IMG/VR virus record: IMGVR_UViG_3300037475_000064
Source of the DNA: a virus
Strand: one strand, 5' to 3'
Length of the DNA stretch: 64,000 nucleotides
In this document: one piece after another, positions 6,620 through 40,416 of the stretch
How positions within the stretch are numbered: position 1 is the stretch's first letter
Layout of the letters: every line of letters starts with the position of its first letter
Translations under genes and position numbers: made by a program
The notes under the pieces: model-generated
Databases searched by the model: none
The model's input: the letters and a program-made list of their open reading frames with translations, nothing else
What the model was told of the DNA's origin: nothing

Positions 6620-7131
6620 TAGCGACCGTCGAGTTCGTCGGCCAGCTTCCGGCGCGCTTCATATTCAGCGCGCGGCTCGACCTTGCCGACCGGCGGCTGC
6701 TTGATTTCCTGCGGGGCCTGCTCTCCGTTCGGGCCGACGAGCGAATTGGTTTCCTTGAAGGCGCGCGGATCAACGACGCCCTCCGGCAACTCCAGCCCGT
6801 ACTTGCGCTCCAGAACTTCTTGACAGAGCGCCCCGGCCCGCCAGAACAGCGCGACGGCTTCGAGGGCTTCGCCATCCATGCCATTGTAGTTGGCCACGTG
6901 ACGCATGATGCAGTCAGTATGATCCATACTCTTGCCGCGTGCGTGGTGCAGCGGCTCGCCCGGGTTGTGCTTCTCATTGCCGTTGTACGAGTGCTCGGCG
7001 AGCGCGGCGATGGCGTCGGGGAAGTAGGCCATCACACCGGAGAAGATCGGCACCTTCTTGCGGCCTGCGCTATCGAAGCGGTCGAGATAGCGGCGGAAGC
7101 GGACAATCGGAGACGATGACTTCTCGGGCAT
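6619..7131 (-). CDS. DUF5664-like protein (dATP/dGTP diphosphohydrolase N-terminal-like)
   Basis: FPDAIAALAEHSYNGNEKHNPGEPLHHARGKSMDHTDCIMRH resembles the remembered signature of this phage family; needs HMM confirmation. Confidence 0.4.
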   Translation of the reverse strand: MPEKSSSPIVRFRRYLDRFDSAGRKKVPIFSGVMAYFPDAIAALAEHSYNGNEKHNPGEPLHHARGKSMDHTDCIMRHVANYNGMDGEALEAVALFWRAGALCQEVLERKYGLELPEGVVDPRAFKETNSLVGPNGEQAPQEIKQPPVGKVEPRAEYEARRKLADELDGR

Positions 7132-12822: not shown

Positions 12823-13189
12823 CGGCGTAGGCCCTCAGTTGATCTTGCAGCTTGGTGTTGATCTTTCCGGTTTTCATGAACTCATCGCAGAACGCAGCGC
12901 GGATTTCTTGTATGCGCGGAGGCGCGCTGTCTCGGGGCGGGCGGCCTCGGCCCCTAGACGTGTCTCGGGCCAGCGCAATCACTGGCTTGCCCCAGCGCGC
13001 TAGCCGCTCCGCTCTCGCGGCTTGACGCAGCGCTCGGGCCGCCGCCTGCCCGGGCTTAGGCTTGGGCACGTGGACCGGCTGACTGACTGCCCGCTCAAGG
13101 TCCCAGCCGTGCTCCAGCCGCATGTAGGCGCAGGCGTAGCTTATCCCCGCCGCGCGTGGCCGACCGTCGAGTTCGGGATGCTTAGACAT
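12644..13189 (-). CDS. putative DNA-binding protein (HTH-like N-terminus); 3' end uncertain
   Basis: N-terminal GISYACAYMRLEHGWDLERAV resembles NUMOD/HTH-type modules; C-terminal ~59 aa overlap the next gene and look low quality. Confidence 0.45.
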   Translation of the reverse strand: MSKHPELDGRPRAAGISYACAYMRLEHGWDLERAVSQPVHVPKPKPGQAAARALRQAARAERLARWGKPVIALARDTSRGRGRPPRDSAPPRIQEIRAAFCDEFMKTGKINTKLQDQLRAYADEHRSAKNNSRRVPVEQAAQCPSGRHSHMGNERGRSPDQTDVGSSREVAARIADYLRAG

Positions 13190-14669
13190 TGGTCCTCATC
13201 AAGAGATCGCGCAATCCACGACCGCTAAGGTCATCGGCAACCGTGGTCTTCCCATCGACGAGCGACCAGTTGCGATCATCGACCGTTCCCGGAGTTCGAA
13301 GACGGACGATAGTGACAGGATGCCCCCACTTCTCAGTCCCGCGTTCTTCTCCCTGATTGACGTGAATTGCGTTTGGAGTAGACGAGAAAAAGATGATTGC
13401 ATGCGCTCGGCTATAATCTTTTCCTTCGCCGCCGACAGCCGGATGCCCGACAAGCACGACGGGTCGATCACTGTTTTGAAACTGTAGTCGGATGGCCTCG
13501 CGCTTCGCCGTGGGGACGCCACCGTGCATTTCGAGGAACGGGATGCGCTCTTTCTTGAGCCGCCTGCAAACGCGAACGATGTCTTCTCGGTAGCGGCACC
13601 AAACGATAGAGTTCTCAGGAAACGTTCCTGTGATCTCATCAACGAGAGCGTCGTAGATCGGAGCCTCCGGGTCGATATCGATAATTTTGTCGTCATCTTT
13701 CACATACCCGTTGAGGATTTGCTGGAGCTTCTGCACTCTGGCCCCGCTGTCCTTGGCGCTGACCATGTCGTCGCCGATCTCGACGAGATGTCTGGAGACC
13801 ATCTCCAGATACGCTCGCCGCTGGACTTCACTCATAACAATGATCCGCTCGGTCCGCAATAGCTCAGGCATGCCCTCTACGTCGTCCCGGGTCACGACGC
13901 TCGACCACTGTGCCATTTTTGCCTGTAGCTCGCCAAGGTTCTTGTAGCCCTTGATCTTCCTATAGGCCCGACGCTTGGCGCGGTACGGCGGCGCGTTCGG
14001 GTCAACTTCCCAATCCGCGTATCGAGTGGCGAACTTCTCATAGGCGGGACCCGCGAACTCGGGACCGAGCGTGAGGTCGCCGAGAATTTTATAGATGGAA
14101 TAGGCGCGCAGGGGCGAGTTCAAGATCGCGGTGCCCGTCTCGACCGTGATGTACTTGGCGACCTTGCCGAGATTGCGCGCGAGCCGCGTGCGCTTCGCTC
14201 CGGCGCGACCGAAGTGATGGGCCTCGGAGATCACCAGCATGATCTTGCCATTGCACGCTTTGCGAAAGCGGCGGATGGCTTTGATGCAGTCCATATGCTG
14301 GAGCGCTTCCATATTGACGGTCAGATAGCGGATGCCGTCACGGTAGGCTTCGAACTTCTCCAGCGCAGCGATGCGGTCCCAGTCGGCGCGCTTCGGCGTC
14401 TCCCATCCGAAAGCCATATACTCGTTGATCGGCCACGACCAGCGCGGAATTTCGTTGAGGACCCAGTTGAGGTGAATGCCGTTTGGCGCGAGTACGACGA
14501 CGCCTTCGATGTTGCCATTGGCAAACTGATACTCGGCCTTGTCGATGACGGCTTTGGATTTGCCGGTCCGCATGGTCCAGAGCAGCGCGCGGCACCTATC
14601 GTCGCGGTGCTCGTCGAACTCTTTCTCTTGGTGTGCCCACGGCTTCTTAGCGTCGGAAGGGGTTGTCAC
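13182..14669 (-). CDS. SNF2/DEAD-like superfamily 2 helicase
   Basis: Walker A RTGKSKA, DEAH-like VISEAHHF, C-terminal helicase motif VGGEGKDYS...IIFFS. Confidence 0.8.
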   Translation of the reverse strand: MTTPSDAKKPWAHQEKEFDEHRDDRCRALLWTMRTGKSKAVIDKAEYQFANGNIEGVVVLAPNGIHLNWVLNEIPRWSWPINEYMAFGWETPKRADWDRIAALEKFEAYRDGIRYLTVNMEALQHMDCIKAIRRFRKACNGKIMLVISEAHHFGRAGAKRTRLARNLGKVAKYITVETGTAILNSPLRAYSIYKILGDLTLGPEFAGPAYEKFATRYADWEVDPNAPPYRAKRRAYRKIKGYKNLGELQAKMAQWSSVVTRDDVEGMPELLRTERIIVMSEVQRRAYLEMVSRHLVEIGDDMVSAKDSGARVQKLQQILNGYVKDDDKIIDIDPEAPIYDALVDEITGTFPENSIVWCRYREDIVRVCRRLKKERIPFLEMHGGVPTAKREAIRLQFQNSDRPVVLVGHPAVGGEGKDYSRAHAIIFFSSTPNAIHVNQGEERGTEKWGHPVTIVRLRTPGTVDDRNWSLVDGKTTVADDLSGRGLRDLLMRTNV

Positions 14670-15939: not shown

Positions 15940-18519
15940 TCATTTTCTTAGTCTTGGGCCGACCCAGCCTTCCGCCGTGATGGGCATGCCGGGAGCCCAG
16001 TCGGGCACCACGGACATGATTGCCTCAAAATCCTTGACAGCGCAAGTGCCTATAGGAGCCTCGGCAATAACTTCGTCGTGGATGGAAAGCAGCAAATCGA
16101 ACGGGTCTAGCTCGTCAACGCGAAGCATGGCTTCGGCGAGCAGATCGCGAGAGCTTGCTTGGTCATAATTTTCGACGAGAGAGCCGCCGTGAGTGCCGCA
16201 GCGTTTCCACTGTTTAGTGTATGTATCGCGGCCCATGAATGAAAGATGTGGAGAGACAAAACTCTCTGGCGGATCAGGCAACAGCCGCTTGTTCTGCTTC
16301 GCCGCCATCTTCTCGGCATGCCAACGAACTCGGTGCTGCGGCACGCTCTTCTTCGCGGGGAAGTTGACGGTAGTCGGTCGGCCCCGGGCGTTGAGCGCGG
16401 CGAAGCGATAGGTGACGCGCATGTTCACGCGCGGATAGAGATACGCCAGTAGGCGGCCCGAGGGCAGGCGACAGTGCAGGAAATTGCCGTCCGCGCTCAT
16501 GAAGTAGGAGACCGCGCCGTTGCCGAACTCGTCACCACCGCACCAATGCTCGCCACCTTCGATCACGGCAGCGATGGCCGCCTTCTCGGTAGAGCGCCAG
16601 AGCATCGGCACCTCGGGGTATTTCTCTTTGCGGTAGATACGGACCACCATCTGACAGAACTCGTCGTCGAGCCAAATACCCTCATCCATGTAGACCGTCG
16701 CTTGGAATTTCTCCCAGCCCATCGCGTAGCCGAGACCGAGGATGGCTTTCTTGCCGAGGTTACGCTCAGACTTGTCGGCCTTCGTGATCAGACGGCCATA
16801 GATGCCGCTCGCCATGTCGCAGTAGATGTCCTGCCCGGGCACGAACATCGCAAGCATCGCGGCGCAGCCGGAGAGCCACGCCAGCTTGCGTGCTTCGATG
16901 GCATTGAAGTCGGCGGCGTAGAGTTCTTTGTCCTCACTGGCGATCAGCGCACCGCGACAGGCTTTGGCCAATGCAACCATTGGCTCGCCCCACATGATGG
17001 TGACGAGTTCGCGGTCGAGCGACAGGATGTCGCGCCACGCGTCGCCCATTTCGTCGAGGCCGTCAGACGTAAGCTTCTTGTAGCCGCCGCCGTAGCCCCG
17101 GACGAAGTTGTGCGGCTGCACGCCCTTGCCTGACCAGCGTCCGGTACGGTCGGCCCCGTTATAGAGCATGATGTCGTGCAGGCGGCCATCCGGACACACG
17201 CTCTGCACCATGCGCTTGTACTTGGCGACCGATGAGCGGTTGACCTCCATGCAAATGCGGAGCGCCCGCTCGACCCGCGCGCCCTCTTCGCCCATGCTTT
17301 CCCACTTTGTCCGGGACGCGGGCAGCGCAGCCTCTTTAGCCTCGTCGCCTGCTTTGGTCGGGACGCCGTCGAGCGCGAAGCTGAGCGTATCGGCCTTGGT
17401 ATCGGCGAGGGGGTCCTGATCAAGCTCTACCAGCCGCCCATTGGCCCAACGCAGTAGGGCTGCACGTTGGCTCCCCTTCTCGACCGCACCGCCAGTGATC
17501 TCCGTAAGCTCGCCATTGAGCCGTTCGGCCTCCAGCGCGGCCAGCTTGAGGGCTTCCTCCGCAGCGGTCTTGTCTAGCCGGATGCCCCGCAAGTTCATGC
17601 GGAAATCCATCAGCCAATACTTCCGCTCTTGCTCGGGCATCTCCGGGCAAAAGTTCGACAGGCCGCGCTCGGCCCGCACGTCGCCCTTGCAGTATTCCCA
17701 GTTGCTACGGTGCTCGGCCTCTTCCTCGCAGAACTTAACTCCGTCTTCGGCGTCGCCGACGTGGCGCTCATAAGTCGCGAGCTTGGGCTTCAACTTGATC
17801 GCTGGTGGCTCCGTTAGCCATTCGTACTGGCCCTCTTCGGGATGGCCGAGGATGCCTTTGCGCTTCGCCAGTTCCTCATTGAGGAATTTACGGATCGAGC
17901 CCATCGCCGCAGGCTCTCCCGAATAGTAGTCCGGGAAGTAATTGTTGACGATCATCCGCTGTATTTCCTCGGCGTCTTCCGTGGTGAACGGCTCAGGGAA
18001 GAGCTTGAACAGTTCGGCCTTGAACAGATCGCGAGGCGTCGCCCCCGGCGTCAGCGCCTTGGGCGGTCGATTACGCATTGGCTTCGACAGCTTGTTGATG
18101 AGCCGCTTGCCGTCCGCGATCTTGTGATCGGGCAGGCCTAGTGCGCGGATGGCATCTTCAAGGCCACGGGGCAGCGACAGGCACGAAGCTTTGGCCGCCG
18201 AGCAGAACATCTGCTCAGGCTTTAGCTCGACATCGAACTCGGGAAATTCCCGGCGGAGCGTCTCGTTCCAGATGTTGAACTCAAAGCCTGCGTTGTGCGC
18301 CTCGACCGGCTCGCCGCTGCGGATGCGCTCGATAAGCTCATCCGGGCGCGGGCTCTTCCTGATCCACGGATGGTCGCGGTGCCAGAGATGTATCTCGTCT
18401 TCCTGATCGTAGGCCCACGCAAGACAGAGCGCCTGCGAGCTTGCATCCATGGCATAGCGCCGCTGTCCCCACTTGATGAGGTCGGCGGCGGACCGAGTTT
18501 CGAAGTCGAGTGTGATCAT
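15940..18519 (-). CDS. family A DNA polymerase with 3'-5' exonuclease domain
   Basis: Exo I LDFETRS; motif A DFNAIEARKLAW; motif B RNLGKKAILGLGYAMG; motif C SIHDEV; ATG at 18519 overlaps upstream stop (ATGA). Confidence 0.9.
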   Translation of the reverse strand: MITLDFETRSAADLIKWGQRRYAMDASSQALCLAWAYDQEDEIHLWHRDHPWIRKSPRPDELIERIRSGEPVEAHNAGFEFNIWNETLRREFPEFDVELKPEQMFCSAAKASCLSLPRGLEDAIRALGLPDHKIADGKRLINKLSKPMRNRPPKALTPGATPRDLFKAELFKLFPEPFTTEDAEEIQRMIVNNYFPDYYSGEPAAMGSIRKFLNEELAKRKGILGHPEEGQYEWLTEPPAIKLKPKLATYERHVGDAEDGVKFCEEEAEHRSNWEYCKGDVRAERGLSNFCPEMPEQERKYWLMDFRMNLRGIRLDKTAAEEALKLAALEAERLNGELTEITGGAVEKGSQRAALLRWANGRLVELDQDPLADTKADTLSFALDGVPTKAGDEAKEAALPASRTKWESMGEEGARVERALRICMEVNRSSVAKYKRMVQSVCPDGRLHDIMLYNGADRTGRWSGKGVQPHNFVRGYGGGYKKLTSDGLDEMGDAWRDILSLDRELVTIMWGEPMVALAKACRGALIASEDKELYAADFNAIEARKLAWLSGCAAMLAMFVPGQDIYCDMASGIYGRLITKADKSERNLGKKAILGLGYAMGWEKFQATVYMDEGIWLDDEFCQMVVRIYRKEKYPEVPMLWRSTEKAAIAAVIEGGEHWCGGDEFGNGAVSYFMSADGNFLHCRLPSGRLLAYLYPRVNMRVTYRFAALNARGRPTTVNFPAKKSVPQHRVRWHAEKMAAKQNKRLLPDPPESFVSPHLSFMGRDTYTKQWKRCGTHGGSLVENYDQASSRDLLAEAMLRVDELDPFDLLLSIHDEVIAEAPIGTCAVKDFEAIMSVVPDWAPGMPITAEGWVGPRLRK

Positions 18520-18764
18520 GCGAGATTGCGGGCGTCCCGAATTTCGACCGGCCCGGGAGTGCTGGACATCACGCGGAGCGTTGGCGTGAGCAGCGAGCGC
18601 AGTGCCTTCGAGAGGCATTCGCGCGCATCGCCGACATTCTTCACCGCGATGTGGCGCTCATGCTCGGAGCAGGCCGGGTTCGTCGCGACGACTTGCGCAA
18701 GCGTCAGGGCCTCAATGGCCTCCGTGACGAGTTCGATCTTAGTCTCTTGCTGAGGATTTGACAT
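18516..18764 (-). CDS. hypothetical protein
   Basis: 82-aa ORF coupled to the polymerase gene. Confidence 0.5.
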   Translation of the reverse strand: MSNPQQETKIELVTEAIEALTLAQVVATNPACSEHERHIAVKNVGDARECLSKALRSLLTPTLRVMSSTPGPVEIRDARNLA

Positions 18765-18902: not shown

Positions 18903-19532
18903 TTAGCCCAGATCGTCCTCGTCGCCGCTAGCGAGATCGTCATCCTCGGAGAAGCCCTCCGCAGGATCGTCACCGAAATCGTCCTCAGCAGACGTGAAGC
19001 CTTCGAAGCTCTCATCGTCGCCGACCTTCTGGAGGTTGCCGAGACCGATGGCCAGACCCTTGCCGATGTTGTTGAAGGGGTAAGGGTTGACCGACGCGCG
19101 AGCCCAGCAACCGGCGTAGAACTCTTCCGAGTTCTCGCTTGTGATTGCGTTGCCGCTCACGTCGAGGATTTGCGGGCGGCGCTTCGAGTTGGCCATGGAG
19201 AAGAACACCATGTCCGGGTCGCCGTAGCCCTGATAGTCCTTCTCACTGCCCTTGTGAAACGGAATTTTGAAGGACCGATCTTCCTTCATTTCCTTGATGG
19301 ACTTTTTGAAGAACTCTTTGCAGACCTCCGCGAGCTTGGTGCGGATGGCTTCCCACTTCGCCTTGTCGGCGTCAGTGAATTGCTTCGGATAGAAGAGACC
19401 GGTCAACGAGTACCGAGGGGTCCCGTTGTTGTAGCTGGCCTTCTCGAAGACTTGGGGGAAGCTGACACGGAATTTCGGGGTCAGCAGGCGGGAGCCCTTT
19501 TTGCCGGGCGCGGCTGTAGCGGTGCTTGCCAT
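18903..19532 (-). CDS. T7 gp2.5-like ssDNA-binding protein (DUF2815-like)
   Basis: 209 aa; N-terminal RLLTPKFRVSFPQVF pattern, highly acidic tail ...SEDDDLASGDEDDLG; sits next to polymerase. Confidence 0.65.
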   Translation of the reverse strand: MASTATAAPGKKGSRLLTPKFRVSFPQVFEKASYNNGTPRYSLTGLFYPKQFTDADKAKWEAIRTKLAEVCKEFFKKSIKEMKEDRSFKIPFHKGSEKDYQGYGDPDMVFFSMANSKRRPQILDVSGNAITSENSEEFYAGCWARASVNPYPFNNIGKGLAIGLGNLQKVGDDESFEGFTSAEDDFGDDPAEGFSEDDDLASGDEDDLG

Positions 19533-21843: not shown

Positions 21844-22055
21844 CGCGTCACCTTCACGTCCGAAAGATAGACGCTGAGATACGGCACTTCATTGGCCATG
21901 AAGAGCATCAGCTTGTCCGCGAGAACTTTGCGCATCTCGTCGGCTTCGCTGCGCATCAGCACGCCCGGCTCGACCGCAATCGTCGCGCTCAGGTCCACGC
22001 GCATGCGGTTCTTGCTGACGGCCCTGACGTTCACTCGGCGGATAAATTGGGGCAT
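21840..22055 (-). CDS. hypothetical protein
   Basis: 71-aa ORF coupled to the nuclease gene. Confidence 0.5.
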   Translation of the reverse strand: MPQFIRRVNVRAVSKNRMRVDLSATIAVEPGVLMRSEADEMRKVLADKLMLFMANEVPYLSVYLSDVKVTR

Positions 22056-23341
22056 TACATGAAGTCCTCTTCGTCGTCATCCGCGAACTCGTTGGCCGCG
22101 TCGTCGAGGGCGCTCGCGGCCTCGCGCGGATCATGCTCCGGCGCAATCGTCAGCGCGCCGTTCGGCATGAACGCCAGTTCCTTGACAGCGGCCTTGACGA
22201 GTTTGCGTTGCTCTTTGCCGACGCCGAGCTTCTCCAGTTGCGCTGGCGTCTTGAGCTTCGGCGCGACGAGAAGGTCATCCTCGGGCAGGCCGAGGTCGTC
22301 GATAAATTTTTCCTTGACTGCGACTTCGCTGATCCAACGGCGTTTCGATTTGCCCCGGACAAGCTTCCAGCCGGGCACCTCGTTGCCGTTCTCAAGCTCA
22401 CGCTGGATGTCAGCCTTGATGTTGCCGACCCATGCTTCGATCACGGGGACCCATTCCATCTTGTGGGCAAGTTCTGCTGTGCTCTTCGGCGTCGGCAGCA
22501 TGGCGGGCGGCTCGTCGTCGGCGAAATCCACCTGAGCCTCTTCGAGCAGCATAGCGTCGTATTCTTCGCAACGCGTCTTGGCCGGACACCACAGGCACCA
22601 ATCTCCAGCGCGCAACCGAGCATTTGGTTTTGAAGTTTCATCGGCTGCACGCTTCATCTCGATTTCATACAGCTTCAATTCGTCCGCAGTAAAGGTCTCC
22701 GACCGGATCAGGCCCTCGGCATGCGGCGCGTTCGGCTGCGAGATCGTAACCGTGACGCCCTCGGCGTCGGGATGCTCGTGCAGCAGAAAAACGCCGTATT
22801 GTTTTAGTTGATCATTGTCTTTCGCTTCGACGAGGATGTAGCCGTTCTTGTGGTCAACGAGATTGATCCAACCGAACGGCTCGACCAGCGTCACGTCCGC
22901 CGTGCCGCCGAGGCGGCTGTCAAGCCACTTGCCGTCAAGATATCGCTCCGAGAAAATCTCAGTGCCCTCGGCCATTTCCAGCTTGAGCCGGTCTACTTCA
23001 TCAATGGTTTGCTGCACGCCTTCGACCATCTTCTCGTCGGCGATGAACATGAACCATCCCGGGCGGGCGTGATCGGGGTCGAGCGCGGGCTCGCCGGGCG
23101 GGTAGTATTCGGTCTCGTGGTCCTCTCCATCGTCGCCGCCATACACGAGGAAGGTCGAGCCGTGGTACTCGCGCGCCTCGTGGTGATCATTCTGGATCAT
23201 GATCTCGATAAGCTTGTGCGCGGCAGTGCCGAGCATCGCGGCCTGATTTGTCGTCGAGCTTTCGTCGCCCACGAGAGCGACGGAGCCGGGACAGTTCATC
23301 CATCGATGCGAGGATGAGGGGGACAGCTTGGCGTGAGCCAT
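22055..23341 (-). CDS. PD-(D/E)xK exonuclease, DUF2800/Cas4-like
   Basis: N-terminal LSPSSSHRWMNCPGS, core DHKNGYILVEAKDNDQLKQY, C-terminal Cys cluster CLWCPAKTRC. Confidence 0.7.
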   Translation of the reverse strand: MAHAKLSPSSSHRWMNCPGSVALVGDESSTTNQAAMLGTAAHKLIEIMIQNDHHEAREYHGSTFLVYGGDDGEDHETEYYPPGEPALDPDHARPGWFMFIADEKMVEGVQQTIDEVDRLKLEMAEGTEIFSERYLDGKWLDSRLGGTADVTLVEPFGWINLVDHKNGYILVEAKDNDQLKQYGVFLLHEHPDAEGVTVTISQPNAPHAEGLIRSETFTADELKLYEIEMKRAADETSKPNARLRAGDWCLWCPAKTRCEEYDAMLLEEAQVDFADDEPPAMLPTPKSTAELAHKMEWVPVIEAWVGNIKADIQRELENGNEVPGWKLVRGKSKRRWISEVAVKEKFIDDLGLPEDDLLVAPKLKTPAQLEKLGVGKEQRKLVKAAVKELAFMPNGALTIAPEHDPREAASALDDAANEFADDDEEDFM

Positions 23342-27180: not shown

Positions 27181-27424
27181 GAGGTCGGTCTCCAGTGAGG
27201 TTGAAAAGAAGTTTGACGGCGCGATCAAGTCTTGTCGAAAGTCGTTTCGCCCGGATGCTCTTGATCACGTCGTTGTAGCGAGACTGGGCGAGACGTTTCT
27301 TCTCGGGATGCGCCACGTGATAATCACGGTGGCGGAGCGCAGTCCGTTTTCGGCTGCACTCATGCGAACACGTTTTCCAATTTTTGTGCGAGGCGAACTC
27401 CGCGCCGCAGGATGAGCATATCAC
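27092..27424 (-). CDS. zinc-ribbon protein, first gene of leftward block (3' end uncertain)
   Basis: GTG start; CSSCG...CSHEC; last ~30 codons overlap the next gene. Confidence 0.4.
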   Translation of the reverse strand: MICSSCGAEFASHKNWKTCSHECSRKRTALRHRDYHVAHPEKKRLAQSRYNDVIKSIRAKRLSTRLDRAVKLLFNLTGDRPHDHYRTIIRRKTRGRTDRDGSRDTRPHVG

Positions 27425-27552
27425 GTGGAGGCACCAATTTCAGACACCACATGCGGTATACCGAGCCGCGAAAATTGTCAAGAGCCTCAAAATGCTTGCA
27501 TTCGTTAACTTTTGATGGTAGTGACCATGTCCCAATCCCCCGGAAAGGTCCT

Positions 27553-29916
27553 ATGATTAGACAGCGTACCCTTGACCTCGCGTGGGAATATGTAGAGCGG
27601 CACCTGTATCGCCGCTATCTTTTTCCGATCAAGCCCGGCGCAAAATTTCCGCCGCTGATCAAGAACAATCTCGAAGACGCATCGTGTGATCCTGAGCAGC
27701 TTCGCGCGTGGGAGGCGAAATGGCCCGGATGTAATTGGGGCGTCGCGCACCGCAAATCGGAGTTGATGGTCGCCGACATTGACGTGAACAAGCTCAAAGG
27801 CAAAGTCGGTCAGGCCACCTTCGATGGCCTCGACCTGATCTACGGTTGGCCGCCGACCGAGATGACCACGACGCCGTCCGGCGGCTGGCACATGATATAC
27901 GAAGGTTGGGCCAACGAGAACCACCCCGCTCACATCATGGCGCTCGGCGAGAACGGCATCGGCAAGGACATCGACAGCCCGAACTATACGCTGATCCCGG
28001 GCTGCACGTTTGACGATGGCACGTCCTACGTCGGCAACGACGCCGAAGCCGTCAAGTGCCCAGAATGGATATACGACACCATCAAGAGTGCGAAGACCAA
28101 GAGCCGCGTCACGGACGCAGGCGAGGTCGTCATTGAACTCGACCAGCAAGCCAACATCGAACTCGCGATTGACTTCCTCCAGAATGACGCCGCGCCATCC
28201 ATCCAAGGCTCAGGCGGCGACTTCAATCTGCTCAAGGCCGCCTACTACCTCAAGGACATCGGTATCTCGCAAGGGCTCGGCGCAGAACTCTTGAACGAAT
28301 ACTTCAATCCGCGTTGCGAGCCCGCGTGGGACGTGGCCGATCTCGAAAAGAAGATGGCGGGCGCGTACAGCTACGCCAATCTCTCGAAGGTAGGCGGAAA
28401 GACAGCCGAGGCCGACTTCGCCGACGAGCCGCCAGAAGCCCCAATAGAGCCGATGGGCATCTGGGACAACGAGACAAAGTCCTACAAGAAGGACCCGAAG
28501 CGGCTCAAGGGTCAGGTCAAAGCGCGAGCCAAAGTGCGTAAGCGTGAAGAGGGAAAGCTCGACGACCCGAAACGGGCGAAGACAAAGGCCAACGTCCTCG
28601 ACCAGTTCGTATGGGTCGTCGGCATGGAGCGGTTCATCAACATCGTGGACCCGGTCGGAAACGATGAACGCGACATCTGGAAACGCTCGCAGTTCGACAG
28701 CGAGTTCAACAAGATTTGGTTTCCCGCACCGAAGCGCGGCAGTGCATCGGATTTCCTGCTCCGCGTCCCCAAGGGCGGCTTGCAAAGCTTCTACCGTGTC
28801 GCGTTCAAGCCCGGGCAGCCGCGTTCGCTCGACGGCGGGCTGGCGTTCAATATGTACCGCGCGCCCGATGTGGTGCCTGTCGAGGGCGACCTCGCGTGGT
28901 GGGATGCTCATCTCGAATACCTGTTCCCGGAAGAGACCTATCGAAACCATCTCTTGGATTGGATGGGTTGGCTTGTGCAGAACCTCGACAAGAAACCGAA
29001 GCACGCGCTGATCATTCAGGGCGAGGTCAACGGCACGGGCAAGAGCTTCATCGGCAAGGTGCTCGCCCGCATTCTGCACGAGGCGAACGTCTCCATCGTT
29101 CCACAGAACGGGCTCTCGGGCCGGTTCAACTCGTGGGCTCTCCAGTGCAAGCTCATCCTGATCGAAGAGTTGCGCGCCTCTGACAAGCGCGCGGTCAAGG
29201 AAGCTCTGCACGACATTATCACCGAGGACCGCATCAACGTCGAAAAGAAAGGCGTCGATAGCATGATGGTCGATACCTGTTTCGGCGTCATGGCCTTCAC
29301 CAACGACGACGCCGCGCTCGACCTCGACAACACCGACCGCCGCTACCTCGTGATCCGCACCGACCGCACTGAGGCCGAGGCGCTTGCGCTGTCGGCGCAG
29401 GGCTACTTCATCCGGCTCTTCGCCAAGCTTGAGGACCCGACCGCGATGGCCGCCGTCGCCTACGCGCTCATGAACCGCGATCTCAAGGGCTACAACGGGC
29501 AGGCCGCCGCACCGAAGACCGAGGCAAAGGGTGGCATGAAGAAAGCCGCGATGAGCGACCTTGAGCATCACCTCGACGAGAACCGGGGCGAGTGGCCGCT
29601 CTCCAGCCGCCTCGTGACCATTGAGGACGTGATCTCATCGCTACCGAAACGTATCGAGCAGAAGGGCTACCGGCTGCACGGTACGATCAAGAAGTTCCTG
29701 TTGACCGACCTCGACGGCATTGACCTCGGCCAGTGCACGACGCCGAGTGGCAAGAAACCGCGCCTGTACGCCATCAACGGCGCGGGCAACATCCTGTCGG
29801 CCCAGCCGCGCACCGTAGCGGGCAAAGTCTACGAGGACGACAAGGTCCGGGCTGGCAAGAACCAACCGCTCGAAGACATCGACGACGCCGCCAGTGAGTT
29901 CGACGGAAAAGAATAG
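27553..29916 (+). CDS. bifunctional prim-pol primase / D5-type SF3 helicase
   Basis: N-terminal prim-pol motifs (VADIDV, GGWHMIY), central D5_N-like region, P-loop GEVNGTGKSF; ATG at 27553 with GGAAAGG RBS. Confidence 0.85.
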   Translation: MIRQRTLDLAWEYVERHLYRRYLFPIKPGAKFPPLIKNNLEDASCDPEQLRAWEAKWPGCNWGVAHRKSELMVADIDVNKLKGKVGQATFDGLDLIYGWPPTEMTTTPSGGWHMIYEGWANENHPAHIMALGENGIGKDIDSPNYTLIPGCTFDDGTSYVGNDAEAVKCPEWIYDTIKSAKTKSRVTDAGEVVIELDQQANIELAIDFLQNDAAPSIQGSGGDFNLLKAAYYLKDIGISQGLGAELLNEYFNPRCEPAWDVADLEKKMAGAYSYANLSKVGGKTAEADFADEPPEAPIEPMGIWDNETKSYKKDPKRLKGQVKARAKVRKREEGKLDDPKRAKTKANVLDQFVWVVGMERFINIVDPVGNDERDIWKRSQFDSEFNKIWFPAPKRGSASDFLLRVPKGGLQSFYRVAFKPGQPRSLDGGLAFNMYRAPDVVPVEGDLAWWDAHLEYLFPEETYRNHLLDWMGWLVQNLDKKPKHALIIQGEVNGTGKSFIGKVLARILHEANVSIVPQNGLSGRFNSWALQCKLILIEELRASDKRAVKEALHDIITEDRINVEKKGVDSMMVDTCFGVMAFTNDDAALDLDNTDRRYLVIRTDRTEAEALALSAQGYFIRLFAKLEDPTAMAAVAYALMNRDLKGYNGQAAAPKTEAKGGMKKAAMSDLEHHLDENRGEWPLSSRLVTIEDVISSLPKRIEQKGYRLHGTIKKFLLTDLDGIDLGQCTTPSGKKPRLYAINGAGNILSAQPRTVAGKVYEDDKVRAGKNQPLEDIDDAASEFDGKE

Positions 29917-30646: not shown

Positions 30647-31555
30647 TTATCCAGCGACCTTTGGGAAAGGCCGAAGGTTGGTCCACTCGAAGTCCTTCAC
30701 GGAGCCCTTGCGGTTGCGTACCACAAAATTCCATGCGAGGACCCAGACCGCCGCGCGCATCGTATCGTGAATGCGAACAAGCGGGTTCTCTTTCATGATC
30801 TTCGCGAAGGTCCTATTGGCCTTCGAGATCGGGTTCATCCGACCGGGATGCGTCCCGCTAGACCATGCCTCGAAGAACTCATCGGCGAGCGCCTTGTTCT
30901 TCTTGGCGAAGATGTAGTACAGCGCCGACGCAAGCGAGCGCGGCGTGTTCGTGGCCTTCTGCACCAAGAGACCCTTCTCCATCCCGACCGCGATCAGTTC
31001 ATGATCGTAGCCCTGATTGAAGTAGGCGTCCCGGATTTGGGCGCGCGTGAACGTCGTGCGCTCTTTGACTTGGTCGAGGCGGAATAGCTCCAGCCACCGC
31101 ATCACGTGCGCGAGCAGTTGCGGGTTGTCCATTCCGTCAACGAAGAAGTCGTCACCGATGGACCGCGTCCTTCCCTTGTCGAGCCATGGGAAGACAGCGT
31201 CATCGATCCCGAACACGACATGCGTCGTGAACGATTTGCGCGCTCTCACGCAAGCATAGAGCCGGTTCTGGCCGTCGCCGAGCACGCCGGATTTGGTGAA
31301 CTTGATCGTGTCGCCCGTGAGGTGCCACGTCCCGTTCGTCATGTCTTCGGCATACTCTTTGATCTTGCTAGGCTTGCGGCCTCGGTTGTGACTGTTCATA
31401 CCGGGCGTATCGGTGCCGACCCCGAGGATGGTCGCGGCGGCCTTCGGCGTGAACGTGATAACCCGAGAAGTCTCGGGCGGCTTCTTAATCCACTCGTTGA
31501 TCTGGTCCATAAGATCAACCGTGGAACGTGTCTGTAAGACAGCTACGTTACTCAT
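30647..31555 (-). CDS. ParB-like nuclease-domain protein
   Basis: NRGRKPSKIKEYAEDMTNGTWHLTGDTIKFTKSGVLGDGQNRLYA (DGQHRL-type motif); ATG at 31555 with GGAGAG RBS. Confidence 0.55.
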   Translation of the reverse strand: MSNVAVLQTRSTVDLMDQINEWIKKPPETSRVITFTPKAAATILGVGTDTPGMNSHNRGRKPSKIKEYAEDMTNGTWHLTGDTIKFTKSGVLGDGQNRLYACVRARKSFTTHVVFGIDDAVFPWLDKGRTRSIGDDFFVDGMDNPQLLAHVMRWLELFRLDQVKERTTFTRAQIRDAYFNQGYDHELIAVGMEKGLLVQKATNTPRSLASALYYIFAKKNKALADEFFEAWSSGTHPGRMNPISKANRTFAKIMKENPLVRIHDTMRAAVWVLAWNFVVRNRKGSVKDFEWTNLRPFPKVAG

Positions 31556-31712
31556 CGTACTCTCCAACAAAACCCCCTTCCGTATCGCCCGCGTTCGGAA
31601 TTGAGCGCAAGCCTCTCATGCGATTGAGATGCAACAGAAGATACATGAGCTATGCTGCTCGTCAACCCCGCCCCGCCACATTGTCACCCGGTATGGTGAA
31701 CGCCCAACACGC

Positions 31713-31742
31713 TTGACACGTCCCGGACAGAGCGGCTATTCT
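31713..31742 (+). promoter_or_regulatory. sigma70-like promoter TTGACA-18-TATTCT for the tmRNA locus
   Basis: Consensus -35 hexamer; no ORF downstream on the + strand. Confidence 0.5.
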
Positions 31743-31800
31743 CGCGATTGCTAGGACACAACGGACAAGGCTTTGGCCGCGTTCAATTCCGACGACGGTC

Positions 31801-31914
31801 GGGGCGATTGTTAATCGTGGATGGGTAGCGTGTGGTTGACCAGTCTTAGCGATGGTTCTGAATGTCAGGACGGACCGTGATCAGACGCGGGGGCAGTACC
31901 CGCCGCCTCCACCA
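31801..31914 (+). ncRNA. ssrA: tmRNA acceptor piece (3' tRNA-like half ending CCA); 5' boundary uncertain
   Basis: T arm GCGGG-GGCAGTA-CCCGC (31887-31903), acceptor 3' strand CGCCTCC (31904-31910), ACCA (31911-31914). Confidence 0.7.
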
Positions 31915-32075
31915 CGGACAGCGCGAAGCGGTATGGATACCGTGCATCGAATATGCGACGCCTCTTCGTAGGGTCTCGCGCTGTCTCTGATGGGGGCGAA
32001 CTAGGATCGATGGGCACGACGAAGTCAGGAAGTGAACCCGGCATGATACCGCCGACATCGGGTCAAAAACTAAAT

Positions 32076-32120
32076 GTGAACGACAACGTTCCCATGACCG
32101 AAATGCGCCTCGCGGCGTAA
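32076..32120 (+). other. tmRNA tag reading frame VNDNVPMTEMRLAA-stop
   Basis: GUG AAC GAC AAC GUU CCC AUG ACC GAA AUG CGC CUC GCG GCG UAA, preceded by CAAAAACUAAAU (compare the remembered E. coli AAAAAAUAGUC-GCA). Confidence 0.6.
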
Positions 32121-32159
32121 GCGGTTGGGGTTAGTCCACCTAGCAACAGAATGGCTCGT

Positions 32160-32194
32160 ATCGCCCGGCGCGCAAGCTCCGGGCGATTTGCGTT
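32160..32194 (+). terminator. intrinsic terminator of the tmRNA unit
   Basis: ATCGCCCGG / CCGGGCGAT stem then TTTGCGTT; overlaps the stop of the convergent HNH gene. Confidence 0.65.
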
Positions 32195-32624
32195 AGAAGG
32201 GAATGTCCTCGGGAGCCGGGCGAGCGGGAGCGCATGGGCGGGCAGTTCTGCGGTTCTGGGATGGGGTCGCCCACGTCAGGTTCTCGCGCTCGCAGTTCAA
32301 GCTATCGCCGTCCCCGTGGTCGCCCATGGTGTGTCTATGGCTCGGCTGAGCCTTCCCGGTCCGTTTAAGGACCTCTTTGTGCAGATAGAGCTTGATCCGG
32401 CGATGCGCTGCCCCGTCCGTGGTAGAGCGCGTGGCGTATGCTTTTCGCTTATGCCGGTCCCACGTGATCTGCCATTTCCATTGCAGCGCCCACGCGTAGT
32501 CATCGAAAGAGACCGTCGCATATATCCCGCGCTCAACGTCGAGCCAGATGCGATGCTCCGCCGAAGACCTCGTCAGATGTGAAGTCGGTATGGTAGGGCA
32601 GGCCGCAGCGTTGACATCTACCAA
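32193..32624 (-). CDS. HNH homing-type endonuclease (start uncertain)
   Basis: GDHGDGDSLNCERENLTWATPSQN HNH core; upstream AP2-like IWLDVERGIYATVSFDDYAW; TTG start in the track; ends ...PEDIPF. Confidence 0.7.
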   Translation of the reverse strand: MVDVNAAACPTIPTSHLTRSSAEHRIWLDVERGIYATVSFDDYAWALQWKWQITWDRHKRKAYATRSTTDGAAHRRIKLYLHKEVLKRTGKAQPSHRHTMGDHGDGDSLNCERENLTWATPSQNRRTARPCAPARPAPEDIPF

Positions 32625-33298: not shown

Positions 33299-33513
33299 TT
33301 CTGGACCCGATCATGCCGACGCGCCGTGCTCTTCCTAGCTTTGGCCCGCCGTTCGTTCTCGGCCTTGAACGCCTCGTCGCACGCCTCTTTGCCGTGCTCC
33401 ATGACGAACTTGTTGAGATTAAGCCGCGCCTTGATACGCTCCAGTTGGTTGCGAGAGCCGCAACCGTCCACGAGCGCGTTGAACTTCCTGCGTTGGGCGG
33501 GCGTCAGGATCAT
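33295..33513 (-). CDS. hypothetical protein (72 aa)
   Basis: ATG at 33513 (MILTPAQRRKFNAL...) with ATGA overlap. Confidence 0.45.
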   Translation of the reverse strand: MILTPAQRRKFNALVDGCGSRNQLERIKARLNLNKFVMEHGKEACDEAFKAENERRAKARKSTARRHDRVQK

Positions 33514-34097
33514 GACGGGCTCTGCCAGTGTGCCCAGACTTGCCACGCCTGCACGATGCAATCATAGACCGGCTCGTGTGCTACGCCCGGGATGTCGAGC
33601 GCGTCGCCGATGGGCACGAGGCGCATCGCCGGGGTCTCGCGGCAGAACGTCCGCATGTCGCGCGGAGCCTGATAGTGCCACATATTGTCCTTACTGATGC
33701 CGATGTCCTCAGCGAGGCCGATGATGTTGCTGAGATCGAATTGTGTGCCGTTGGCCCAGACGCGCGTCCGGCCCTCGCAGAACTTCTGCACGAGCCCAAT
33801 GGCTTCGTGTGGCGAATGATGTTCGTCGGCATCAACCCAATGCCGCGATGCCTCGTAAGGCTGCTTGGCCCAAAATTCCTGAGTGCTGACATCGACACGG
33901 CGACCGAGCGCGAGTTGCGCCGGGATGTCGAGCACGAGCAGCGAACGCTTGCCGACGAAAAGCTGCTTGAGCGGCGCGGGGTCAAACTCGATCATGCCGA
34001 TGCTCAGGATCAGCGCCTTGTGCGGATGCAGCGACATGGTTTCGATGTCAAGCATCACGTGCTCGTAGGGCGTTTCAGAAGGGGATGTCGTCGTCAT
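33510..34097 (-). CDS. DEDDh 3'-5' exonuclease (DnaQ-like)
   Basis: MLDIET (Exo I), ANGTQFD (Exo II), HEPVYDC (Exo III, H-x4-D). Confidence 0.75.
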   Translation of the reverse strand: MTTTSPSETPYEHVMLDIETMSLHPHKALILSIGMIEFDPAPLKQLFVGKRSLLVLDIPAQLALGRRVDVSTQEFWAKQPYEASRHWVDADEHHSPHEAIGLVQKFCEGRTRVWANGTQFDLSNIIGLAEDIGISKDNMWHYQAPRDMRTFCRETPAMRLVPIGDALDIPGVAHEPVYDCIVQAWQVWAHWQSPS

Positions 34098-37830: not shown

Positions 37831-38032
37831 TTGGGCGTTTGGGGTCGATTTTCACTGTTTTTGGGTCGGATTTCATTTTCGCCGACCCGCATAAACATTG
37901 GGTTTCTTGCATCGCGGAGGCCCGAAAACAGGGTCTTTTTCGGTCGCTAATCGGTCGTCCGCTGGGGGCCGCGATAAACCTTAACTCTTGCTAACGTGCT
38001 CTGATCAAAGCTCAATTCGGCGCGCGGCCCAA

Positions 38033-38121
38033 TTTCTCACCTCTTTTCATTTCTCACCTATTTCTCACCAAATTTCTCATCTTATGTCGTTGATAACACA
38101 ACAATTTCTCACCTTCTCACC
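38033..38121 (-). repeat. iterons: 5-6 copies of the same 9-mer in opposite orientation (TTTCTCACC)
   Basis: Copies at 38033, 38050, 38061, 38073 (degenerate), 38105 and 38114. Confidence 0.8.
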
Positions 38122-38174
38122 TCTTTTACATATTCTTTAGTGAGTATGGTGTGTGTATAGGAGTTGACGAATTT

Positions 38175-38191
38175 GGTGAGAAGGTGAGAAA
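38175..38191 (+). repeat. iterons: 2 adjacent GGTGAGAA(A) copies
   Basis: GGTGAGAAGGTGAGAAA. Confidence 0.7.
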
Positions 38192-38220
38192 TCGGGTCAC
38201 TTTTGGGGCCTTTGGCTCAT

Positions 38221-38590
38221 GCAAGGGGTAGCTGCTATTAGGGTTAATTTAGAGTTAAGATAAACCCTGCATCGTGGCGTTTTAACCTTAACAGTTAAGA
38301 TTAATGCGCACGAAGGCCCCTGTGGCGGCTATTAACCCTATCAATTAACCTTAATTTAGGGGTTGTAGGCCCCTAAAGGCTTGATATTATTAACTTTTAT
38401 TCTTTACGTTAATCGCTTAGCCCTGCGTATAGCGCATGCACTCATGCACATGCATCCATATCCCCTTGATATCATTACACTATTGTCGTGATGTTCCATA
38501 CTATATGTTATGCGAATTGACGTTAACCTTAATCACTATGCATTAACCTAAATTGTTTACGTTAATCGCTATTAGTAGTGCTCGAAGCAT
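38221..38590. repeat. AT-rich repeat region (TTAACCTTAA x3, TTTACGTTAATCGCT x2, palindromes)
   Basis: TTAACCTTAA at 38282, 38345 and 38523; 15-mer at 38403 and 38556; GCTATTAGGGTTAA / TTAACCCTAT inverted; ATGCA triplet at about 38435-38452; clearly lower GC than its flanks. Confidence 0.75.
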
Positions 38591-38810
38591 TGACCCCTCC
38601 ACAAGATGGTGCTACCCTAGCCTCGCAGAGATAGGCCGTAGGACCCAGATTTTGCATCGAAGCGCCAGACGCAATGTCCCCCTGCTCGCACACACCGCCT
38701 CGATTTTGAACCGAAATTTAGAAAAATAAAAATATGAGGATTAAGAAAAACTCTTGCCTCCCCAAATTTTTCGTGCTAGGGCAACCTGACAATTTCACAA
38801 GGTCCCCAAC

Positions 38811-39653
38811 GTGACGCGCCTGAGCACATCATCCCCGACGAGGTTCTTCACCGGCAAGCCATGCGTGCGCGGCCACATCGCCGAGCGCTTGATCAGCAAC
38901 AACGGCTGCGTCGTCTGTCAGAACGAACGGAAGGCGAAGCGCGGCCAGTCGCCGGACTATCGCGCCCGCCGCAACGCCCGGCTGAAACGCAAGCGCGATG
39001 AGCGGCGGGAGCCGAGGATATGTGCGGTTTGCTTCGGGGCCTTCGACGCGCAAGAGGGCAACCGCTTCGCGGCTAGGACCTGTTCGCCCGAGTGCGGCGA
39101 GACGTTCTATGCGCGCAACCGCAAAAAGCAGCCGGACAAAGAATGCGATCACTGCTTCGCGATGTTCGCGTCGCGCAACCCGGCGCAGCGTGCGTGCTCG
39201 CCCCAGTGCAGGGCCGCGCTCGAAGCCGAGCAGCGGGCGGCTCGGACCAAGCCGTGCGTCAAATGCGAGACAGTGTTCAACCTGAGCAGCGACGACAACG
39301 GGCGCAATGGCTTTTGCTCAGACGAGTGCCGGGGTGAGGCCCGTGCAGAGCGATGCGCCTCCGCGTACCAGCGGCTCCGCATCCACAAGCCCGAGGTCAT
39401 CGTCGCGAGGAAAGCCCGATACCGACTTAACCAGCCCGAGGCGTTCATGCGTACTCGGAAAACCATCAACAACCGTCGTGTCGCTGGCGAGACCGCCGCG
39501 TATGAGGTCGCGAAGCAAATGATCCCTGACGCGCTGGCCGGTCTTCCCGGCTATCGTGCCAAGGTTCGCGCGTCTGTCGAGTTCTTGCGTTCGATAGGTA
39601 TGAACCCCAGCAAGCCAACGGAGAAAACTGATGTCCCCCTTCGATCAACTTAA
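38811..39653 (+). CDS. multi-zinc-ribbon protein, first gene of the rightward operon
   Basis: GTG start; FTGKPCVRGH...NGCVVC plus four further C-x2-C/CS-x-EC units, basic linkers. Confidence 0.6.
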   Translation: MTRLSTSSPTRFFTGKPCVRGHIAERLISNNGCVVCQNERKAKRGQSPDYRARRNARLKRKRDERREPRICAVCFGAFDAQEGNRFAARTCSPECGETFYARNRKKQPDKECDHCFAMFASRNPAQRACSPQCRAALEAEQRAARTKPCVKCETVFNLSSDDNGRNGFCSDECRGEARAERCASAYQRLRIHKPEVIVARKARYRLNQPEAFMRTRKTINNRRVAGETAAYEVAKQMIPDALAGLPGYRAKVRASVEFLRSIGMNPSKPTEKTDVPLRST

Positions 39654-40416
39654 AGCCGACATGATCATCCCGCTCATTAAGAGCAACCCGACAGCATCCG
39701 ATAGCGAACTCTTCCGGCTCGCTGTTCGACACTTCGAGAAGAACGAAGGGTCTCGGCAACTGTGCTACGAGTATTTTATCAAGAACGCGCTACTCTCGGT
39801 CGAGCGTGTCAAGCCGCAGGGCGACAACTCAATCGCCGTGCTGCCGCGTGCGCGTGCGAGCGCCCCCGCTCCGGCTCCAGTTCGCGCGGAGGTCGAGCAT
39901 CGTGTGGCCACACCCCAGACCCGTAAGACGATTGTCGAACAGGTTCGTCGCGATGCGCCATCCGCGCCCGCGCCGGTACAGAAAAAGATCGTCGAGGAAG
40001 TCACGAAGCAGTTCGAACGTCCGCTTGTGCGGGCGTCGATTGCGACTGAGGCGGCGCATAACATCCCAGCTAATCCGCACCGGATGCCCGTCGCCCGAGA
40101 GCAAGCGGTCGTCGCCGCTGTTGCCAAGGCGGTAGCAGTTGAGGTGCCGAAAGCTATCGCGAAGATCGACCGCGTCGAGCAAATGAAGGTCGAGGCGATT
40201 GCCTGCGTCCTGCTCGACTATGTATTGCCAGATGGCACGCCGGTCCGCGATGCTACGTTCGGTGCTCTGGCGAAACTCGGCGGTTGGGCGACTGCCGTCT
40301 CCAAGCTCGGCCCGGCGAATGCCAAGGTCGGCGGCCTGCGCGGCGTCAGCGAAGAGACGTTGCAGAACATCATGCGCCGCTTCACCGATGAGACCACCTC
40401 GCGCCGCGTCGCATAA
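39631..40416 (+). CDS. hypothetical protein
   Basis: 261 aa, GGAGA RBS. Confidence 0.6.
   Translation: MSPFDQLKADMIIPLIKSNPTASDSELFRLAVRHFEKNEGSRQLCYEYFIKNALLSVERVKPQGDNSIAVLPRARASAPAPAPVRAEVEHRVATPQTRKTIVEQVRRDAPSAPAPVQKKIVEEVTKQFERPLVRASIATEAAHNIPANPHRMPVAREQAVVAAVAKAVAVEVPKAIAKIDRVEQMKVEAIACVLLDYVLPDGTPVRDATFGALAKLGGWATAVSKLGPANAKVGGLRGVSEETLQNIMRRFTDETTSRRVA

Follow-up and report, generated by a model that had tools for sequence, protein, structure and literature searches.

The 64-kb window analysed here (the whole stretch of DNA, from IMG/VR virus record IMGVR_UViG_3300037475_000064, to which all coordinates refer) carries on its + strand, in a gap of 622 nucleotides (nt) between two protein-coding genes, a set of elements that supports a complete, circularly permuted gene for transfer-messenger RNA (tmRNA) of the alphaproteobacterial type (ssrA) inside a phage genome. 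This reading was first put forward in a preliminary description made from the sequence alone, and it is upheld here because two covariance models, a relaxed run of the program ARAGORN, and synteny and covariation in related phages all agree with it. The elements were read again in the region 31500-32400, and the coordinates given earlier for the promoter, T arm, acceptor halves, tag and hairpin each matched base for base. By length alone, the longest stop-free frame in the gap has at most 94 codons. The elements are as follows:

31713-31742, + strand: promoter-like site of the sigma-70 type, TTGACA-18-TATTCT (TTGACA at 31713-31718, TATTCT at 31737-31742); promoter scan 10/12
31804-32161, + strand: full-length match to alpha_tmRNA (RF01849), Rfam covariance model
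31854-32120, + strand: match to tmRNA_permuted (RF04321), Rfam covariance model
31854-31883, + strand: P2 5' strands of the acceptor piece, namely outer P2 (31854-31858), P2b (31865-31871, with a tandem G.A) and P2a (31876-31879 and 31881-31883); Rfam structure line and covariation
31887-31903, + strand: T arm with a 5-bp stem GCGGG/CCCGC and a 7-nt loop GGCAGUA; sequence and Rfam
31904-31914, + strand: acceptor 3' strand CGCCUCC (31904-31910), discriminator A and encoded CCA (31911-31914); predicted 3' end of the acceptor piece
31915-31991, + strand: intervening segment, predicted to be excised, with a 71-nt four-way junction made of an 11-bp closing helix (31916-31926/31976-31986) and three hairpins
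31992-31998, + strand: acceptor 5' strand GGGGGCG, pairing with 31904-31910; here RNase P is predicted to cleave and the coding piece to begin
31999-32038, + strand: conserved segment of the tRNA-like domain (TLD), AACUAGGAUCGA, then the 3' strands of P2a (32011-32013 and 32015-32018), P2b (32024-32030) and outer P2 (32034-32038)
32039-32060, + strand: PK1-like pseudoknot, hairpin CGGC/GCCG (32039-32042/32051-32054) whose loop UGAUA can pair with the downstream CAUCG; Rfam structure line and pair counts
32076-32120, + strand: tag frame, with a GUG resume codon, 14 codons reading VNDNVPMTEMRLAA, and UAA at 32118-32120; sequence, Rfam alignment and ARAGORN -ps
32121-32159, + strand: 3' domain of the coding piece, with CCUAGCAACAGAA as a conserved stretch; Rfam and clade alignment
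32160-32194, + strand: terminator-like hairpin with a 9-bp stem (32160-32168/32179-32187), then AUUUGCGUU; abuts the stop codon of a convergent HNH gene

The order is permuted, in that the encoded CCA ends at 31914, the GGGGGCG strand starts at 31992, and the tag follows at 32076-32120. Within the 7-bp acceptor stem G31994 pairs with U31908, which gives G3:U70, the identity element for charging with alanine; the pairing of GGGGGCG with CGCCUCC around this wobble had been described earlier and is confirmed, the G.U pair being invariant in all six sequences compared below. The proposed TTGACA-18-TATTCT site is likewise present, and its motif is kept across the related phages. The site may act as a promoter, in which case the RNA would carry a leader of about 105 nt ahead of the P2 helix. 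At the other end, the intrinsic terminator of the preliminary description is present as a terminator-like hairpin (folding energy -25.8 kcal/mol, z = -3.4), and the stem is retained through four compensatory pairs in the relatives; a strict terminator scan did not list the hairpin (32160-32187), because its T run is short.

A scan of the whole window with Rfam at gathering thresholds returned exactly two matches, both at the tmRNA region. Alpha_tmRNA scored 122.5 bits against a gathering threshold of 50 (E = 7e-33, model positions 1-355 of 355), and tmRNA_permuted scored 117.2 bits against a threshold of 47 (E = 3e-22, model positions 1-213 of 213). The covariance search, which had been proposed as a check on the gene, has thus yielded full-length matches to both models, far over their thresholds. 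With lowered thresholds (-ps), ARAGORN placed a tmRNA at 31822-32211, flagged it as permuted, and read the tag as VNDNVPMTEMRLAA. The T loop GGCAGUA had been considered unusual; it matches the GGCgGUA of the Rfam alpha_tmRNA consensus and is therefore the normal alphaproteobacterial form, and the T-arm/acceptor 25-mer that contains it is widespread (see below). Taken together, the ensemble of elements is far beyond chance.

Judged from this evidence and from the comparisons below, the locus very probably represents a functional permuted ssrA of the alphaproteobacterial type in a tailed phage that looks virulent and has an alphaproteobacterial host. Several points weigh against such an interpretation. 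ARAGORN at its default settings found neither a tRNA nor a tmRNA in the window; since the relaxed run recovers the gene, we regard the miss as a false negative caused by the threshold, and this second proposed check was positive in the relaxed run alone. The Rfam score of the window copy (122 bits) is well below the 228 bits of a typical chromosomal-type copy (L155). In the window copy a tandem G.A sits in P2b, the middle P2 helix, and A48 is mismatched with C56 in PK1. The tag opens with GUG instead of the usual GCN resume codon, and a Val resume codon has been reported to be suboptimal in Escherichia coli (PMC2862035). Finally, the benefit that ribosome rescue would bring to the phage is a conjecture.

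The low score and the default ARAGORN miss would also suit a different history, in which a host ssrA gene was captured passively, by imprecise excision or recombination, and is now decaying without any function for the phage; the acquisition of ssrA via temperate phages has been discussed (PMC9004378). The related phages bear directly on this explanation. They were sought among viral and metagenome contigs with the flanking phrog_5931 protein as anchor, counting duplicate identifiers once. Five further contigs were obtained, L001, L002 (an 83.9-kb viral contig, identical with L010, L162 and L165), L164, L166 and L168, and every one of them, reaching the slot, has a permuted tmRNA there. A sixth, the 3.4-kb metagenome contig Ga0207664_10045359 (L163), encodes an anchor protein 100% identical to that of the window and ends before the tmRNA; either the same phage was sampled there a second time, or the window derives from this metagenome. 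The gene order about the tmRNA is collinear in the window, L001 and L002, with protein identities of 38-89%, and over all five contigs the proteins flanking the tmRNA are 40-89% identical. Four of the five related contigs give Rfam matches of 98-135 bits; the tmRNA of L168 was identified via its intact acceptor halves, alignment and relaxed ARAGORN. Of the five distinct members of the clade that were tested, four (the window, L001, L166 and L168) escape ARAGORN at default settings. At the nucleotide level the tmRNAs of the relatives are 67-79% identical to the window copy.

Base pairs were counted over the six-sequence alignment, in the Rfam-defined helices together with the spacer and terminator helices. 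Standard pairs occupy 97.3% of the structure cells, as opposed to 38-44% when the 3' partner is slid by 1-3 columns; 18 of the 59 pairs have changed on both sides, compared with 1-4 in the slid controls; and none of 500 column shuffles matched any of the observed pairing measures. The compensatory pairs include three of the five in the T arm, two in outer P2 (which is 100% paired across the clade), seven of the eleven in the helix that closes the spacer, and one in the acceptor stem, where the neighbour of G3:U70 goes from G-C to A-U in L001. The encoded CCA and the NDN...LAA-stop frame are kept in all six sequences, and a TTGACA-17/18-TAnnnT motif lies 22-108 nt upstream of P2 in all five distinct clade members. 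Such a pattern would be expected of purifying selection on a working tmRNA, and not of a decaying passenger gene. Although the phages have diverged substantially, the gene still occupies one and the same syntenic position, and the tag frame, promoter and terminator are intact in every member; moreover, the 18 compensatory pairs contradict decay, which breaks pairs rather than compensating for them. We therefore consider a decaying captured copy to be quite improbable.

The P2b helix, to which the covariance model gives poor marks in the window, was judged in each sequence separately by RNAduplex, MAFFT having placed P2b of L002 and L166 one column off register. In the window the helix reads U-A, C-G, A.G, G.A, G-C, A-U, C-G, and in L168, the closest relative, C-G, U-A, A.G, G.A, G-C, A-U, C-G; the two versions differ by a pair of compensatory swaps, and the tandem G.A beside them is conserved. 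In place of P2a, RNAalifold proposed a local hairpin for the six sequences; this candidate was rejected, the Rfam-defined P2a being 95% paired across the clade.

The tag frame was confirmed, and its NDN...LAA form, noted earlier, is kept across the clade. In alphaproteobacteria the NDN motif and the LAA terminus are the determinants for SspB-alpha and ClpXP. The relatives all keep an in-frame tag of 13-16 codons that ends in LAA and a stop: VANDNYPVEMRLAA in L168, (V)AHNDNFPAEMRLAA in L001, ANDNNVAVEALALAA in L002 and L164, and ANDNVAFAEPIRLAA in L166. As for its start, work in E. coli has established that the spacing of a UA at positions -5 and -4 fixes the resume codon. In the window U32071 and A32072 occupy these positions relative to the GUG at 32076, the Rfam alignment matches this GUG to the first codon of the consensus GCa AAC GAc AAc, and ARAGORN starts the tag at V. 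L168 reads UAACU GUC GCA AAC, so that the same rule leads to GUC, and ARAGORN calls VANDN... there; the window appears to have no counterpart of the GCA codon that follows GUC in L168. A reading in which translation resumes at AAC and GUG is the -1 triplet was considered as well and rejected, the UA spacing, the Rfam alignment, ARAGORN and the parallel with L168 all favouring GUG.

The Val codon, pointed out as unusual in the preliminary description, is indeed a minority state, yet it has precedent and recurs in phage tmRNAs. Helicobacter pylori uses GUA as its resume codon, and GUA or GUC work in E. coli, although less well (PMC2862035). Val (GUN) resume codons are also found in the viral contigs L069, L079 and L091, in Mesorhizobium phage Cp1R7A-A1 (VAANDN...) and in Erythrobacter phage vB_EliS-L02 (VNDND...), whereas none of the 32 tags that ARAGORN called in contigs of the genome collection, a small and non-independent sample, begins with V. 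An enrichment of Val resume codons in phages is, for sequences chosen in this way, only a lead. The GUG of the window, belonging to a known minority state, is best treated as a variant resume codon; the frame, the UA, the NDN motif, LAA and UAA are all present.

The state of the coding piece is also what decides on a further explanation, namely that the RNA is an inhibitor or decoy that titrates host SmpB or occupies stalled ribosomes and thereby shuts down trans-translation of the host, comparable to the TLD-only RNA of mycobacteriophage DS6A. That phage RNA is reported to inhibit tmRNA strongly, perhaps by titration of SmpB (PMC4131195); the window encodes no SmpB, and its weakened P2b and PK1 and non-Ala resume codon could be taken in the same sense. 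A decoy, however, would need the tRNA-like domain alone, whereas here the UA resume context, the LAA tag frame, PK1 and P2 have all been kept at 67-79% nucleotide identity. Since the whole mRNA-like half is conserved, we consider a role as decoy very unlikely.

As judged from its gene content, the window is phage DNA throughout. Phage genes, recognized by Pfam and phage-family matches, extend for more than 25 kb on either side of the tmRNA. A gene call by frame composition gave about 90 open reading frames (ORFs), which run leftward as a block between about 2.2 and 37.7 kb and rightward as another from about 38.8 kb on; the tmRNA lies on the + strand within the leftward block, in the replication module, between the phrog_5931 and HNH-like genes. 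The principal genes are:

13182-14669, - strand: SNF2 helicase
15940-18618, - strand: DNA polymerase A
18903-19532, - strand: Enc34-type SSB
22055-23341, - strand: DUF2800 / PD-(D/E)XK nuclease
27412-29916, + strand: primase-polymerase
30647-31570, - strand: flanking phage gene phrog_5931, function unknown; synteny anchor
32193-32624, - strand: HNH-endonuclease-like gene on the other flank; present in L002, absent from L001
56487-58082, + strand: terminase
58630-60348, + strand: portal

Pfam scans of essentially all of the roughly 90 ORFs in the window detected no integrase, recombinase, SmpB or alanyl-tRNA synthetase (AlaRS) and no obvious host housekeeping family, most ORFs being without any match; ARAGORN at default settings and Rfam found no tRNA genes in it. 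The window covers 64 kb of the genome; a single full contig was seen among its relatives, with a length of 83.9 kb. The nearest cultured relatives are distant, the portal and the polymerase being 46% and 43% identical, respectively, to those of Roseobacter phage RDJL3, followed by PhiJL001 (by portal) and NP1-like Pseudomonas phages. The genome falls into a siphovirus-like group that has RDJL3 and NP1 as distant relatives. At the DNA level no close relative emerged from the GenBank phage collection, where relaxed E-values brought out matches to the 31 nt of T arm and acceptor alone. No tmRNA was found in the first 50 kb of RDJL3, the closest cultured relative (its last 11.5 kb and PhiJL001 lay outside the scan).

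These surroundings are relevant to the proposal that the element is a host chromosomal ssrA gene beside a prophage, or an attP-type fragment serving integration into the host ssrA. In its favour, tmRNA genes are mentioned as frequent integration sites (PMC4383910), and the 28-nt string of T arm and acceptor is identical in 38 genome contigs, mostly alphaproteobacterial. The gene, however, is full length rather than a fragment, it is flanked by phage replication genes on both sides in a synteny common to viral contigs, and the 64 kb reveal neither the integrase or recombinase nor the host housekeeping families sought with Pfam. In L001 and L166 the T arm and acceptor show compensatory changes relative to those of the window, of a kind incompatible with an att core, and the spacer of 77 nt departs from the 3-12 nt (26-61 nt in a few) that prevail in the chromosomal-type copies retrieved. 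A host gene or attP fragment is hence extremely unlikely.

Some further observations concern the neighbourhood. The HNH-like gene at 32193-32624 may represent a mobile homing-endonuclease insertion. At 33510-34097 (- strand), 1.3 kb from the tmRNA, lies a gene for an Rv2179c-like 3'-5' exoribonuclease (Pfam E = 4e-23), which L001 and L002 also have in the syntenic position (60-63% identity); that this enzyme might trim the acceptor piece to its CCA end is speculation, proximity being the sole link. The GC minimum of the window (0.546, as against about 0.60) falls at 38000-40000, where the genes turn from leftward to rightward near 38 kb, and probably marks a divergent early control region. The ORF at 6619-7131 (- strand) shows a sub-threshold match (26.1 bits, cutoff 27) to the N-terminal domain of a dATP/dGTP diphosphohydrolase (MazZ-like); with no PurZ-like gene in evidence, there is no indication of a pathway for modified bases.

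The segment between the CCA and the acceptor 5' strand is structured. Of its 77 nt, 71 form a four-way junction that folds at -33.9 kcal/mol (z = -3.4); the pairing of 31916-31926 with 31976-31986, by which the spacer had been described as closing on itself, is part of this minimum-free-energy fold, and the closing helix and the third hairpin covary across the clade. The first hairpin, GCGGUAUGGAUACCGUGC (31928-31945, + strand), is identical throughout the clade but for one mismatch in L001, and it was found neither elsewhere in the window nor in the other loci. In most chromosomal-type alphaproteobacterial copies the spacer measures 3-12 nt (26-61 nt in a few), and in viral copies 24-267 nt; this comparison covers loci L003-L160, which were selected by an exact 25- or 28-mer and are thereby biased, so that it may not generalise. 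The covarying four-way-junction insert and the Val resume codon are minor novelties. One might go further and regard the insert, with its near-invariant hairpin, and the Val codon as adaptations specific to the phage, such that the excised insert serves as a separate stable RNA or a regulated processing switch; alternatively, the phage tmRNA could counter host measures that cleave mRNAs or knock out trans-translation in the course of infection. We hold such elaborations to be unlikely.

Permuted tmRNAs of this type are not confined to the present clade. Among the matches listed, more than 120 IMG/VR contigs contain the exact T-arm/acceptor 25-mer, GGGGCAGTACCCGCCGCCTCCACCA, so that alpha-type phage tmRNAs appear to be common, and the 28-mer of T arm and acceptor occurs in the aforementioned 38 genome contigs, mostly metagenome-assembled genomes (MAGs) of Alphaproteobacteria. 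Among 168 loci and the window, 158 locus strands have a GGGGGCG-type 5' acceptor strand downstream, from which we take them to be whole permuted genes rather than fragments. Of the first 160 loci, ARAGORN recognises 92 when run with its default settings. In two MAG contigs, L135 (24-51 and 219-246) and L140 (3952-3979 and 4147-4174), the 28-nt string occurs twice on the same strand, about 195 nt apart, which could reflect duplicated acceptor halves or the att repeats of an island inside an ssrA gene. The alpha-type string is also present in MAG contigs assigned to Methanobacteriota, Elusimicrobia, Omnitrophota, Dehalococcoidia, Ratteibacteria and Flavobacteriales (L126, L138, L140, L142, L151 and L152). 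Most of these contigs (5-45 kb) may be mis-binned phage or alphaproteobacterial DNA, an explanation that does not hold for L142 (Dehalococcoidia, 3.8 Mb).

Three cultured phages were found to carry full-length permuted tmRNAs by Rfam (84-112 bits) that are unannotated in GenBank:

Mesorhizobium phage Cp1R7A-A1 (MT188704.1): L170, 1411-1796; best Rfam match 112 bits
Rhodobacter phage RcRudolph (OP009285.1): L171, 1438-1802; best Rfam match 104 bits
Erythrobacter phage vB_EliS-L02 (OL955261.1): L172, 1420-1828; best Rfam match 92 bits

In RcRudolph a hypothetical coding sequence, RCRUDOLPH_61, overlies the tmRNA gene. The tags of RcRudolph, Cp1R7A-A1 and vB_EliS-L02 read ANDNVRMDAQALAA, VAANDNHFEARALAA and VNDNDVVVARDEVRLAA, respectively, the last of which opens V-N-D-N like that of the window. 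RcRudolph resembles the window phage in its genome size (64.9 kb) and has a related DNA polymerase (34% identity). At the DNA level, the likeness of all three phages to the window is limited to the 31 nt of T arm and acceptor, and their gene neighbourhoods are unlike that of the window, the gene of vB_EliS-L02 being located in a tRNA cluster.

The prototype of two-piece tmRNAs is the ssrA of Caulobacter crescentus (Keiler, Shapiro and Williams 2000, as cited in PMC9004378). The window copy shares with the alphaproteobacterial two-piece tmRNAs the order of elements (P2 5' strands, T arm, acceptor 3' strand with CCA, loop, acceptor 5' strand, P2 3' strands, PK1 and tag), as well as the GGCNGUA T loop, G3:U70, the encoded CCA and the NDN...LAA tag. 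Unlike the chromosomal copies, it is borne by a phage, has about half the Rfam score, and contains a structured 77-nt spacer, the GUG resume codon and the tandem G.A in P2b. The H. pylori SsrA is comparable in its Val resume codon (GUA) and differs in being chromosomal and one-piece, with a tag ending in ...AKAA (PMC2862035).

Among phages, a 2014 census of tmRNAs listed one-piece genes only, in addition to the TLD-only RNA of DS6A (PMC4131195). The mycobacteriophages of the Bxz1 group, Bacillus phage G and DS6A are like the window in carrying ssrA without a phage SmpB; unlike it, the genes of the Bxz1 group and of phage G have the standard, non-permuted order, and that of DS6A has no tag frame (PMC4131195). 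Subsequently, Buchholz et al. (2022) examined 18,146 phage genomes, of which 402 had tmRNA genes, with 133 unique structures of which 53 are two-piece, and described the ssrA of Methylophilales phage Melnitz (PMC9004378). The location in a phage, at first thought unusual, had accordingly been catalogued in 2022 for two-piece tmRNAs. Like Melnitz and the pelagimyophages, the window phage combines a complete permuted alpha-type ssrA with an early-type sigma-70 promoter and with no integrase detected (here in the 64-kb window) (PMC9004378). Melnitz, by contrast, is a 141-kb T4-like marine myovirus whose ssrA is accompanied by a glutamine riboswitch (PMC9004378), whereas the window phage is siphovirus-like, with no tRNA genes in the window and no riboswitch at the tmRNA. 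In a permissive Rfam scan the region 31650-32250 gave no riboswitch and no further family, which means that a glutamine riboswitch like that of Melnitz is lacking. Features of this kind are thus already known, and the window copy is a fresh example of them from a different phage lineage.

For the functional phage-borne ssrA that we favour, the following course of events may be envisaged. Host RNA polymerase would transcribe the gene from its own sigma-70-type promoter (31713-31742), in the opposite sense to the replication genes next to it, and would stop at the hairpin at 32160-32187, both motifs being conserved. In the precursor, 31904-31910 and 31992-31998 would form the acceptor stem, with the 71-nt insert keeping the two halves together; for the acceptor stem, T arm, P2 and PK1, the predicted fold is shown by covariation. 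By analogy with Caulobacter, host RNase P would cleave at G31992, and trimming of the 3' end to the CCA at 31914 would complete the excision of 31915-31991, leaving an acceptor piece and a coding piece joined by P1 and P2. The RNA would then be charged by host AlaRS via G3:U70 and brought to stalled ribosomes by host SmpB and EF-Tu, the window encoding no SmpB of its own. Translation would resume at the GUG at 32076, with (A)VNDNVPMTEMRLAA appended to the nascent chain. The phage might thereby gain additional capacity for ribosome rescue during infection, as damaged or truncated mRNAs build up or the host tmRNA becomes limiting. Some phages, for example lambda-immP22, are known to need trans-translation (PMC2862035).

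The locus provides a well-supported example of a phage ribosome-rescue RNA, accompanied by comparative structural evidence, in a siphovirus-like lineage distinct from the marine myoviruses of the catalogued two-piece phage tmRNAs. Since ARAGORN at default settings misses four of five clade members, and since three GenBank genomes carry unannotated copies, surveys based on this program probably undercount the tmRNAs of phages. With its compact gene, and with neither tRNAs nor SmpB in the sequence examined, the clade would, given a host, be a clean system for studying the role of tmRNA in phages.

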